This document shows, one piece after another, positions 35,684 through 37,701 of a stretch of DNA of 64,000 nt. Within the stretch, counting starts at the first letter, position 1. Each line of letters opens with the position of its first letter. The translations under genes were made by a program, and so were the position numbers. The stretch is from Escherichia phage vB_EcoM-fFiEco06. The stretch lies in the sequence record NC_054914.1; one strand, written 5' to 3'. The notes beneath the pieces are model-generated. The model was not told the DNA's origin and made no database searches. It saw only the letters and a list, made by a program, of their open reading frames with translations.

Positions 35684-35710
35684 GTTGTTTTTGTATCAGT
35701 AGTTGATAGT

Positions 35711-35743
35711 TGTATAGTACCATGGAAGAACAGGGATGTAAAC
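35711..35743 (-). promoter_or_regulatory. T4-type early promoter
   Basis: Minus strand GTTTACATCCCTGTTCTTCCATGGTACTATAC. Confidence 0.55.
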
Positions 35744-35870
35744 AGTTTTGTGAAAAAATTTTTTAAAAAGTTTTAGGGAATTCTAGGGCAGGGAGGGGCA
35801 ATTAAAAGATAGGATAATATATTATAAAGGGTAGAAACTAAATGATGTCTAGAGAGGCCCGGAAAGGCCT

Positions 35871-35906
35871 AGATACCAAAAAGCCCCAACCTTTTGGTCG
35901 GGGCTA
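35871..35906 (-). terminator. Rho-independent terminator (copy 1 of duplicated terminator)
   Basis: AGCCCCGACC-AAAAG-GUUGGGGCU followed by UUUUUGG; downstream of ORF 35913..36386. Confidence 0.7.
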
Positions 35907-35912
35907 AGAATG

Positions 35913-36386
35913 TTATTTGATTTGTTTAGCAGACCAAATGCGGTCTTTAATAATTTTTTGGATGTCTTCAACATACTCAAGAGAGTGAACATGTGGGTTA
36001 TCTTTGAAACTATAAGCACGAGCTAGCTTTTGGCCTTCAGTTTTGATTACTAAAAGCTCTTTAAGGATAGCTTCATATTTGGAGATAATTCCTTTAACAA
36101 TATTTTTCTCTTGTGTGACTTTAGGATCTGCTTTAGGAGCAGGTTTACCTGAAGCCTTTGCAAAAGCAGCTCCAGTAGCAACTAAACTTTTCCAAGCCAT
36201 ACTAACTGCATTCCCTGTAAATCCTTCGGCTTTCATATCACGAGCAAATTGGAATCGTGATTCATCGGAAGCATCTTTATAGGAATATTTACCCGCGGCA
36301 ATGGCAGCTTTTGCAACAGCTTGAATTTCAGTGCTAGATGCTTCATTTAACACCGCTTCATTTAAAAATTGAGTATATGATTTCAT
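35913..36386 (-). CDS. Internal-protein-like late gene (capsid-targeting N-terminus)
   Basis: 157 aa Ala/Lys-rich; N-terminus MKSYTQFLNE resembles the T4 capsid-targeting sequence MKTYQEFIAE; TATAAATA late promoter upstream. Confidence 0.5.
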   Translation of the reverse strand: MKSYTQFLNEAVLNEASSTEIQAVAKAAIAAGKYSYKDASDESRFQFARDMKAEGFTGNAVSMAWKSLVATGAAFAKASGKPAPKADPKVTQEKNIVKGIISKYEAILKELLVIKTEGQKLARAYSFKDNPHVHSLEYVEDIQKIIKDRIWSAKQIK

Positions 36387-36422
36387 CTTATTTCCTGTTT
36401 TAATTCGGGGTTTTAATATACT

Positions 36423-36430
36423 TATTTATA
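36423..36430 (-). promoter_or_regulatory. Late promoter TATAAATA upstream of the internal-protein-like gene
   Basis: Minus strand AGTATAAATAAG about 37 nt upstream of the ATG at 36386. Confidence 0.6.
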
Positions 36431-36460
36431 CTAAAAAGCCCCAACCTTTCGGTCGGGGCT
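36431..36460 (-). terminator. Rho-independent terminator (copy 2) ending the tRNA/stable-RNA transcription unit
   Basis: AGCCCCGACC-GAAAG-GUUGGGGCU followed by UUUUUAG; about 30 nt shared with copy 1. Confidence 0.7.
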
Positions 36461-36776
36461 AAGCCTTGCGGCAACCTTGTCGGGGTTCCACCTGCTAAGG
36501 CAAGTGTTTGTACGAAACGCCGGGATTCGAACCCGGTTATTAAGCAGTTGACGCTACTCAATATTTTTAAAAGGCCATATCTCGACCATATCCGAACGTT
36601 CCGTCAAAAACGCTACTCGGCTTACGGCAAAGATATTTCCTCGAATCGATAATTCGGTGCGCCGTTTCTGCTGTGATATAAGGGGACATTAACAAAACAT
36701 AAAGATTTATTAATACCAGTCCTTAAACAGGGAACATCAGTCCGACGACTTGCCGGTAGCGACCCGGCTTCTTGTC
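36461..36776 (-). ncRNA. Stable RNA region (T4 species 1/2, rnaC/rnaD-like)
   Basis: Non-coding stretch between tRNA-Arg and the terminator, containing a tRNA-like T-arm (GGGTTCGAATCCCGG); position as for the T4 stable RNAs. Confidence 0.4.
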
Positions 36777-36852
36777 TGGTCGAGGCAGTAGGGATCGAAC
36801 CTACGACCCAGGACTTAGAAGGTCCTTGCTCTTCCTTCTGAGCTATGCCTCG
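36777..36852 (-). tRNA. tRNA-Arg (anticodon UCU)
   Basis: Hand-folded cloverleaf: acceptor CGAGGCA/UGCCUCG, anticodon loop CUUCUAA, T-arm GGTTCGATCC, encoded CCA. Confidence 0.8.
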
Positions 36853-36856
36853 TATT

Positions 36857-36931
36857 TGGCGGACGTGATAGGATTCGAACCTATAACCAATCGCTTAACA
36901 GGCGATCGCTCTGCCATTGAGCTACACATCC
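36857..36931 (-). tRNA. tRNA-Asn (anticodon GUU)
   Basis: Acceptor GGATGTG/CACGTCC, anticodon stem ATCGC/GCGAT with loop CTGTTAA, T-loop TTCGAAT, CCA. Confidence 0.7.
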
Positions 36932-36935
36932 AAAT

Positions 36936-37022
36936 TGGTGGGGAGTGGTGGAGTCGAACCACCCGAGTCGCAATGACAATGAATTTACAGTCCACACCGC
37001 TACCTCTACGGGATAACTCCCC
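36936..37022 (-). tRNA. tRNA-Tyr (anticodon GUA), long variable arm
   Basis: 87 nt; acceptor GGGGAGT/ACTCCCC, anticodon loop CTGTAAA, T-arm GGTGGTTCGACTCCACC, CCA. Confidence 0.65.
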
Positions 37023-37031
37023 AAATTAATT

Positions 37032-37106
37032 TGGTGGCCCTGGGTGGAATTGAACCACCATCTGGCGATTATGAGTCGCTTGCTTGAACCTTCCAGCTAC
37101 AGGGCC
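37032..37106 (-). tRNA. tRNA-Ile/Met (anticodon CAU)
   Basis: Acceptor GGCCCTG/CAGGGCC, anticodon loop CTCATAA, CCA. Confidence 0.75.
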
Positions 37107-37107
37107 T

Positions 37108-37183
37108 TGGTGCTGATTGACGGAATCGAACCGCCGACCTTCTCATTACAAGTGAGTTGCTCTACCTACTGAGCTAAATCAGC
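37108..37183 (-). tRNA. tRNA-Thr (anticodon UGU)
   Basis: Acceptor GCTGATT/AATCAGC, anticodon loop CTTGTAA, T-arm GGTTCGATTCC, CCA. Confidence 0.8.
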
Positions 37184-37188
37184 AAAAC

Positions 37189-37278
37189 TGGCGGAGGCGA
37201 TAGGATTTGAACCTATGAGTCGCCGGAGCGACTGCCGGTTTTCAAGACCGGTGCATTAAACCACTCTGCCACGCCTCC
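37189..37278 (-). tRNA. tRNA-Ser (anticodon UGA), long variable arm
   Basis: 90 nt; acceptor GGAGGCG/CGCCTCC, anticodon loop CTTGAAA. Confidence 0.8.
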
Positions 37279-37280
37279 AG

Positions 37281-37354
37281 TCTCCGTGGCAGGATTTGAA
37301 CCTACGACATTCTGCTCCCAAAGCAGACGCTCTACCAAACTGAGCTACACGGAG
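37281..37354 (-). tRNA. tRNA-Pro (anticodon UGG), CCA not encoded
   Basis: Acceptor CTCCGTG/CACGGAG, anticodon loop TTTGGGA; separated from tRNA-Ser by 2 nt. Confidence 0.8.
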
Positions 37355-37364
37355 TAAATTAAAT

Positions 37365-37438
<74 letters not shown>

Positions 37439-37443
37439 AAATT

Positions 37444-37530
37444 TGGTGCGAGAAGTGGGACTCGAACCCACAAGGAAATCATTCCGCAGCATTTTAAGTG
37501 CTGTGCCTTTACCAATTTGGCCATTCTCGC
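37444..37530 (-). tRNA. tRNA-Leu (anticodon UAA), long variable arm
   Basis: 87 nt; matches T4 tRNA-Leu as recalled (GCGAGAATGGTCAAATTGG...). Confidence 0.85.
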
Positions 37531-37531
37531 G

Positions 37532-37604
37532 CTGGGAATAAAGGACTCGAACCTTTGCATCCTGGAATCAAAATCCAGTGCCTTACCAACTTGGCTAATT
37601 CCCA
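37532..37604 (-). tRNA. tRNA-Gln (anticodon UUG), CCA not encoded
   Basis: TGGGAATTAGCCAAGTTGGTAAGGCACTGGATTTTGATTCCAGG...; abuts tRNA-Leu with a 1-nt spacer. Confidence 0.85.
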
Positions 37605-37701
37605 ATTATTAACAAAGGCTCTTAAGCAAGAACCCTTGATGATAGAGGGTATTAATCAGTGCGATATGAGTTAATAATAACAAATAATTCTTAAAGCATA
37701 T

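Follow-up and report, generated by a model that had tools for sequence, protein, structure and literature searches.

Orthologues of the T4 stable RNAs rnaD and rnaC in Escherichia phage vB_EcoM-fFiEco06: a covariation-supported, tRNA-like fold of rnaC with a predicted loop-loop contact

We analysed a 64,000-nucleotide (nt) stretch of DNA, referred to below as the window, from Escherichia phage vB_EcoM-fFiEco06 (NC_054914.1), a T4-like phage of the genus Tequatrovirus, and in particular its interval 36461-36776 on the minus strand, which we assign to two stable RNAs, rnaD and rnaC. The interval is exactly the gap between the transfer RNA (tRNA) gene for Arg and the intrinsic terminator of the operon, and several records of Escherichia and Yersinia phages contain it at 100% identity. 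A sequence-only reading of the window had placed about 315 nt of non-coding sequence between these two landmarks, and its limits proved exact. The features of the locus are as follows.

37604 down to 36777, minus strand: cluster of ten contiguous tRNA genes in the order Gln, Leu, Gly, Pro, Ser, Thr, Met, Tyr, Asn, Arg (ARAGORN, Rfam)
36777-36852, minus strand: tRNA-Arg(UCU), the final true tRNA in the cluster of ten (ARAGORN; Rfam tRNA, 65.8 bits)
36656-36775, minus strand: rnaD, 120 nt, assigned as the orthologue of T4 species 2 RNA (mapped from the T4 annotation)
36650-36655, minus strand: A/U-rich spacer GAAUUA between rnaD and rnaC (alignment with T4), presumed to be a processing site
36511-36649, minus strand: rnaC, 139 nt, tRNA-shaped, assigned as the orthologue of T4 species 1 RNA (T4 homology and covariance model R1)
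36464-36510, minus strand: 3' trailer, 47 nt, opening with CAA, which finishes the conserved tail U-A-C-A-A
36489-36506, minus strand: trailer hairpin CACUUGC-CUUA-GCAGGUG
36437-36460 (feature span 36432-36463), minus strand: intrinsic terminator of the tRNA/stable-RNA operon, with a stem of 10 base pairs (bp), 7 of them G-C, a GAAA loop and then TTTTT

The terminator has the G+C-rich hairpin and U-run of a Rho-independent terminator and closes the transcription unit. We propose that rnaD and rnaC are co-transcribed with the ten tRNAs and that the transcript ends at 36437-36460.

The minus-strand interval aligns over its full length with the T4 reference genome NC_000866. At the aligned positions NC_000866 carries two misc_RNA features: immediately behind tRNA-Arg comes rnaD ('small, stable RNA; species 2'), and after a gap of 6 bases follows rnaC ('species 1'). 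rnaC is 98.6% identical to T4 rnaC (137 of 139 bases) and rnaD is 84.2% identical to T4 rnaD, with its 5' 47 nt and 3' 25 nt practically unchanged, while the trailer and terminator together are 94.9% identical. The interval is matched by 807 phage records. Judged by this alignment, the interval almost certainly encodes orthologues of T4 rnaD and rnaC on the minus strand. The correspondence to T4 stable RNA species 1 and 2, which had been drawn from position, thus extends to a base-for-base match of the sequence. The feature is therefore an already known one, the T4 rnaC/rnaD pair in another Tequatrovirus. The T4 RNAs (rnaC, band C RNA, T4s001; rnaD, band D RNA, T4s002) stand in the same order of tRNA-Arg, rnaD, 6-nt spacer, rnaC, trailer and terminator, and rnaC is 139 nt in both phages. 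In contrast to T4, rnaD is 120 rather than 119 nt long and has a different central hairpin, a 556-bp gene cassette lies beyond the terminator, and the upstream cluster has, in addition to most of the T4 set, tRNAs for Met, Tyr and Asn, where T4 instead has tRNA-Ile and the homing-endonuclease gene segB.

Both RNAs have been known since the 1970s. On Northern blots T4 rnaC showed up as a distinct stable species of about 140 nt, and RNAC and RNAD were found by RNA sequencing (RNA-seq) and Northern blot to build up late in infection (PMC9697503). Papers of 2010, 2022 and 2025 give the function of rnaC and rnaD as unknown (PMC3014915, PMC9697503, PMC12685909), which agrees with the remark in the sequence-only reading that their functions were never established. 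When a T4-like phage was evolved on the semi-permissive host ECOR34, one rnaD single-nucleotide polymorphism appeared in three of three lines (PMC12685909). Our literature search found no functional study of either RNA and no usable match for the older work on processing (p2Sp1, RNase F, self-cleavage).

Homologues of rnaC were drawn from a phage collection, from pattern scans of IMG/VR, from metagenomes and from searches with a covariance model, R1, that was built here. R1 scores 159.6 bits at 36508-36649, and rnaC is present as a single copy in the window. The minimum free energy of rnaC is -50.2 kcal/mol, compared to -34.8 +/- 3.4 kcal/mol in shuffled sequences (z = -4.55, with none of 200 shuffles as low), and the folding z-score of the whole 352-nt stretch is -4.75. 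The predicted fold has the following parts.

36642-36648 with 36513-36519, minus strand: acceptor-like stem of 7 pairs, CGAUUCG with CGUUUCG (rnaC positions 2-8 with 131-137)
36639-36641 with 36572-36574, minus strand: 3-bp helix AGG/CCU in the D position (CAC/GUG in Jiaodavirus)
36575-36638, minus strand: long irregular arm of 64 nt in the D position, closed by the 3-bp helix
36602-36607, minus strand: apical loop L1 of the long arm, UUGACG, predicted kissing-loop partner of L2
36564-36571, minus strand: single-stranded linker UUUAAAAA
36538-36563, minus strand: 10-bp arm in the anticodon position with the 6-nt loop L2, CGUCAA (36548-36553)
36520-36536, minus strand: T-arm made of CCGGG, the loop UUCGAAU and CCCGG, with co-varying stem pairs

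RNAalifold, applied to 22 distinct sequences, returned the same fold as the single sequence, with compensatory changes in 24 of 39 pairs. We then fixed the structure on 32 distinct sequences, in an alignment fitted to the nested helices of the covariance model and matched by an independent MAFFT alignment. In this set 94.6% of cells are paired, compared to 82.2% in column shuffles (none of 500 reached the observed value), and pairing falls to 36-48% when the partners are slid by 1-3 columns. Of the 47 proposed pairs, 33 change on both sides. The structure-conservation analysis that the sequence-only reading had put forward as a check, for T-even phages, shows a fold that is kept with compensatory changes.

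The elements compare as follows across the homologues. Two U.U pairs of the acceptor stem in T4-type copies are replaced by U-A and C-G in Tegunavirus and by U-A and A-U in Jiaodavirus, and the third acceptor-stem pair switches between A-U and G-C. The long arm measures 64-65 nt in all homologues, though the 'type A' and 'type B' arm sequences are unrelated. The linker is 7-10 nt long, A-rich on its 3' side and variable on its 5' side. The 10-bp arm is 26 nt long in every homologue and has double changes at all ten pairs, and one unpaired A separates it from the T-stem. The 5-bp T-stem runs directly into the 3' strand of the acceptor stem, as in tRNA, so that rnaC has both the acceptor stem and the adjoining T-arm, with the T-loop consensus U-U-C-R-A. 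The tail has the form U-N-C-A-A in homologues and reads UACA here; a true UCCA occurs only in the Marfa-type and Jiaodavirus copies, and the rnaC tail encoded by this phage has no NCCA 3' end. Because these four elements are combined with a tRNA-like junction of T-arm and acceptor, the topology is that of a cloverleaf with its decoding end replaced. On this covariation, the four-arm secondary structure is very probably correct. The tRNA-like T-arm that had been noticed from the letters is indeed canonical. The accompanying claim of 'no full cloverleaf' stands in that rnaC is not a tRNA by ARAGORN or Rfam, but needs refining in that rnaC folds into a four-arm, cloverleaf-like shape.

The 3' strand of the 3-bp helix is preceded by GG in 30 of the 32 sequences, at the place that G18-G19 hold in the D-loop. 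The two exceptions, with CG, are Kanagawavirus copies (Q7622 type; loci L003 and L021), in which the T-loop has changed from UUCGAAU to UGCAUGC (U55 to G). This paired change is suggestive of a tRNA-like elbow contact between the D-loop and T-loop positions of rnaC; it is a single event, and we do not rely on it. The likeness of the linker bases CUUUUAA to the anticodon loop of tRNA-Lys was considered and set aside as chance; these bases vary across homologues and are partly paired in the 3-bp helix.

Within 36461-36776 no tRNA was called by ARAGORN or by Rfam at its gathering score, and no Rfam 15 family (YrlA, tmRNA, riboswitches, ribozymes) reached its gathering score. A permissive Rfam scan of the interval gave a sub-threshold match to tRNA-Sec (16.6 bits against a threshold of 47), which was treated as noise. 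The interval's only open reading frames (ORFs) encode 42 and 53 amino acids (aa), and the 53-aa one starts with TTG. Both are hit by stops, or have their start codon turned into a stop, in T4 itself or in homologues of other genera. Coding potential was therefore rejected, and the interval does not look coding, in line with what had been claimed.

These results bear on the view that the region holds decayed tRNA genes, or small protein genes as given in many GenBank records. Many public records do annotate 'hypothetical protein' coding sequences (CDSs) over rnaC and rnaD, and some leave the region blank. The 3' 93-96 nt of rnaC are also mislabelled by records or by ARAGORN as an odd tRNA in some relatives: tRNA-OTHER, tRNA-Stop(tta) or a 95-nt tRNA-Met (among them L002 1697-1792, L035 980-1073 and L033 8491-8585). 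The 93-nt 'odd tRNA' fold was tried and rejected, since by our reading of the sequences its acceptor pairing is lost in Tegunavirus and impossible in type-B homologues. The features of rnaC that are not tRNA-like are, in addition, under compensatory selection, and the proposed ORFs meet stops in T4 or in other genera. The pseudogene and small-gene explanations are largely refuted and keep only a very slight probability.

The two hairpin loops of rnaC, L1 and L2, are exact complements, with all six positions paired in all 32 sequences. Four versions occur: UUGACG/CGUCAA in most sequences, UUGAUG/CAUCAA in Tegunavirus, UUGGCG/CGCCAA in the Marfa group and UUGCAG/CUGCAA in Jiaodavirus, the last from a phage-record locus found by the covariance model. 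In the 32 sequences pair 47-104 is AU in 26, GC in 5 and CG in 1, and pair 48-103 is CG in 29, UA in 2 and AU in 1. The pseudoknot was left out of the covariance model, and the alignment is thus unbiased towards L1/L2 pairing. No further loop variant was found in the IMG/VR pattern scans, the metagenome scan or the bacterial genome scan. Since the loops are exact complements and co-vary, as kissing loops upheld by compensatory change do, we conclude that L1 and L2 most probably pair with each other through six predicted base pairs. Such pairing would lock the two arms together, or would join two molecules. Our own count of layers from the folds gives about 20-24 for the lower long arm and 22 for the apical stem (6), the kiss (6) and the 10-bp arm together. 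As far as geometry goes, a single molecule could thus conceivably close on itself, and the fixed lengths of both arms would fit a closed architecture. Our literature search, which did not reach the 1975-1985 papers, found no earlier description of a loop-loop contact in rnaC.

The same loops could instead serve self-association, with pairing between molecules into dimers or rings, or the fold could be an aptamer or a ribozyme. Designed kissing-loop assemblies are built from just such parts, two fully complementary 6-nt loops carried by rigid arms of constant length, and Watson et al. in 1984 are said to have described specific self-cleavage of a precursor of species 1 and 2. Against this, the similar layer counts of the two arms (about 20-24 and 22) would permit closure within one molecule, and no ribozyme or riboswitch family of Rfam reached its gathering score anywhere in the window or appeared among the weak matches (E up to 10) in 35700-37700. 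We consider a self-associating or ligand-binding RNA improbable.

rnaC was found in at least ten named genera, including Tequatrovirus, Mosigvirus, Kanagawavirus, Karamvirus, Moonvirus, Kagamiyamavirus, Tegunavirus, Jiaodavirus and the Marfa group, and in unclassified relatives. The searches returned about 1000 matching phage records (807 + 53 + 138), some of them likely counted in more than one search. A scan of 185,579 bacterial and archaeal genomes found no copy. In phages, rnaC lies nearly always inside or beside a tRNA cluster. It stands between tRNA-Trp and tRNA-Gly in Karamvirus, between tRNA-Met and tRNA-Gly in Moonvirus and between tRNA-Phe and tRNA-Trp in Kagamiyamavirus, and its spacers in these three genera, at only 5-8 nt, resemble the ones that separate tRNAs. 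In two phages, Mosigvirus LH01 and Kosakonia phage 305, a CDS intervenes and the nearest tRNA is several hundred bases away. The structure is kept across at least ten named genera while the adjacent tRNA sets differ. Two pattern matches (L030 and L036) were dismissed as chance. A 93-nt tRNA-like sequence of Aeromonas phage B614 (L054 610-702) was likewise rejected as an rnaC homologue. It is flanked by tRNA-Asn and tRNA-Lys, shows an acceptor stem of 7 bp, an ACCA end, a T-arm, a long extra arm and a CUGUAAA loop, is unannotated and receives no ARAGORN call; it may be a tRNA-Tyr-like gene.

For rnaD, 17 distinct sequences were collected from Tequatrovirus and Dhakavirus, and 14 were aligned. 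The first ~47 and last ~25 nt are practically invariant among the 14. The predicted helices are as follows.

36752-36768, minus strand: 5' hairpin with a 5-bp stem, GCCGG/CCGGC, and an invariant 7-nt loop, GUCGCUA; the closing pair co-varies between A-U and G-C
36675-36728, minus strand: central long irregular hairpin, with a co-varying base
36657-36664, minus strand: 3' strand of the closing helix, CGGCGCAC, forming a 7-bp helix with GUCGUCG (36743-36749) and leaving one unpaired 3' base

The pairs of the closing helix never vary and so neither support nor contradict it. The tip of the central hairpin is swapped wholesale, with three unrelated versions among very close phages whose flanks are identical, which suggests that the tip is exchanged modularly by recombination. 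rnaD starts two bases past the encoded CCA of tRNA-Arg and ends six bases before rnaC. We read it as a structured spacer RNA that two tRNA-type cuts, one on either side, set free. That its flanks do not vary, and that Dhakavirus JS10 keeps it without rnaC, suggests an additional role for rnaD itself.

The flanks of rnaD are invariant in sequence and not just in structure, as a recognition sequence would be, and a 2022 omics paper terms RNAC and RNAD 'small regulatory RNAs' (PMC9697503). Both points are in line with rnaC, rnaD or both acting as antisense small RNAs that pair with phage or host transcripts. However, no target is known, and the duplexes predicted among rnaD, rnaC, the trailer and tRNA-Arg are no better than those of shuffled sequences. 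The only long conserved loops of rnaC are, moreover, taken up by their mutual pairing. An antisense role is accordingly rather improbable for this pair, and we give it slightly less weight than self-association.

The acceptor/T-arm module is the substrate determinant for ribonuclease (RNase) P, for 3' trimming, for the CCA-adding enzyme, for TrmA and for TruB. Since rnaC has this module and stands among tRNAs with tRNA-like spacers, it is expected to mature like a tRNA. RNase P would cut its 5' end, and RNase E and exonucleases would make its 3' end. By analogy with tRNA, excision by the tRNA-processing route is probable, and classical T4 work reportedly ascribed the maturation of rnaC to RNase P and RNase E. 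rnaD would be the piece that remains between the 3' end of tRNA-Arg and the 5' cut of rnaC, and it may resist decay because its 3' end lies one base past the 7-bp helix. Without a 7-nt anticodon loop, and with UACA instead of NCCA, rnaC cannot decode and is very unlikely to be charged. No E. coli synthetase identity set known to us fits its C1-G72 pair and U73, and this mismatch together with the ACA tail likewise makes charging unlikely. Its most likely mode of action would be that of a tRNA look-alike, bound by a protein that recognises the acceptor, T-arm or elbow of tRNA. Candidate targets include a tRNA-directed nuclease of the host and an enzyme of tRNA processing or modification, either of which would be occupied or diverted late in infection. 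Collectively, the explanation we favour, and hold to be reasonably probable as a whole, is that rnaC is a non-decoding tRNA mimic, processed by tRNA enzymes and probably bound by a tRNA factor, with rnaD as the spacer RNA.

Within this explanation, a decoy function of rnaC is a tentative suggestion, modelled on its shape. In its most specific form, rnaC would be a phage-made decoy for a host tRNA-directed defence nuclease or tRNA enzyme. Its locked arms would leave nothing to cleave or decode, the tRNA pool would be protected or the enzyme titrated late in infection, and rnaD would tune the effect in a host-specific manner. This specific form is speculative and rather unlikely. In a more exotic variant, the complementary loops may join several rnaC molecules into a defined assembly.

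The main rival to the decoy idea is a cis-acting processing and stability module. The tRNA-like fold would then only recruit RNase P, the structured 3' region would shield the transcript from 3' exonucleases, and species 1 and 2 would be inactive leftovers. Both here and in T4 the two RNAs close the operon on its 3' side, with the terminator next in line. This fits such a module, as do the ends of rnaD, which fall on adjacent processing sites, and JS10, which is without rnaC and has no visible replacement. Two observations oppose it. In Karamvirus, Moonvirus and Kagamiyamavirus rnaC lies between tRNAs, where 3' protection would be senseless. In addition, the acceptor and T-arm are all that RNase P requires; even so, the other arms, the exact lengths and the complementary loops are upheld by compensatory changes. 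The cis-acting module is unlikely on this evidence, although it deserves more weight than antisense pairing or self-association.

Several points weigh against the reading of rnaC as a locked tRNA mimic and of rnaD as its structured companion. rnaC was not detected in the searched tRNA regions of Muldoonvirus, Roskildevirus and Biquartavirus. Dhakavirus JS10 (L004 1501-1704) keeps tRNA-Arg, rnaD, the trailer and the terminator and is without exactly the spacer and rnaC, and the two RNAs are therefore separately losable. Because it is absent from JS10 and undetected in the tRNA regions of the three genera, rnaC is dispensable in some relatives. T4 mutants that have lost the entire tRNA region are able to grow on laboratory strains. 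One Kanagawavirus lineage has departed from the T-loop consensus (UGCAUGC), which would be unexpected if T-loop recognition were the core function. The covariation of the kissing loops comprises three events only, in three lineages, and touches two of the six positions, with both partners changed each time, and L1 and L2 may instead pair between molecules. The helices of rnaD are mostly invariant, with covariation confined to the central hairpin's base and a single pair in the 5' hairpin, and its folding energy taken by itself is not significant (z = -1.58). Finally, the decoy step would draw its whole argument from the shape of rnaC.

Further observations concern the surroundings of the two RNAs. 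The terminator is present twice on the minus strand, at 36460-36437 and at 35905-35882, with the loop as the sole difference. Between the copies (window 35882-36460) lie a late-promoter motif, TATAAATA, at 36423-36430 and a 157-aa ORF at 35913-36386 (phrog_2280, unknown function), and T4 has one terminator and no such ORF at the same place. This arrangement looks like a promoter-gene-terminator cassette that recombined into the terminator site. The trailer (36464-36510) contains a second copy of CCCCGAC, a motif that in the terminator stem makes up the 5' half, and this copy could in principle pair with the 3' half of the terminator as an alternative. A terminator-like site is scored on the plus strand at 36752-36768; it consists of the rnaD 5' hairpin in complement and a succeeding TTCTTGTCTG. 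No plus-strand gene lies close by, and the site is probably incidental.

The new elements here are the covariation-supported fold of rnaC, its co-varying loop-loop contact and its carriage, like a tRNA gene, in the clusters of T4-like enterobacterial phages. They address an old question rather than constitute a discovery, and the question now has a testable model of rnaC. The rnaC family is absent from Rfam, and a curated model would correct about 1000 phage annotations. If true, the decoy idea would add an RNA to the counter-measures of phages against tRNA-targeting defences.

Among known systems, tRNA itself (RF00005) is the closest to rnaC. The two share a 7-bp acceptor-type stem formed from both ends, an abutting 5-bp T-stem with the loop UUCGAAU, four arms, the GG before the 3' strand of the D-position helix, and a location in a tRNA operon with tRNA-like spacers. 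In contrast to tRNA, rnaC has a 6-nt loop on a 10-bp stem and no 7-nt anticodon loop, and a 64-nt hairpin in place of most of the D-loop. Its acceptor and D helices adjoin without intervening bases, base 26 is replaced by an 8-nt linker, the variable region measures 1 nt, and the tail is UACA. rnaC works like a tRNA but stands outside the tRNA family, in that tRNA models fail on it and it has neither an anticodon loop nor CCA.

YrlA (RF02553), the tRNA-like domain of tmRNA and viral tRNA-like elements such as the TMER tRNAs of gammaherpesviruses retain the acceptor/T-arm, with the decoding part exchanged; tRNA enzymes mature these RNAs, which presumably work via tRNA-binding proteins. rnaC would resemble these non-decoding tRNA mimics in principle only. 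Weak matches to YrlA fall on true tRNAs and none on rnaC, and rnaC is without the Ro-binding stem of YrlA, the mRNA-like domain of tmRNA and the downstream microRNA hairpins of TMER. At the level of mechanism, rnaC is like the six-base-pair kissing complexes. Hairpin loops are paired through all or nearly all of their bases in TAR-TAR* of human immunodeficiency virus (HIV), in L2-L3 of the lysine riboswitch and in RNA I-RNA II of ColE1. Both loops of rnaC are likewise 6 nt long and fully complementary, with no homology to these complexes, and the contact in rnaC is a predicted one. The predicted loop-loop lock of the arms in the D and anticodon positions is peculiar to rnaC among the mimics compared.

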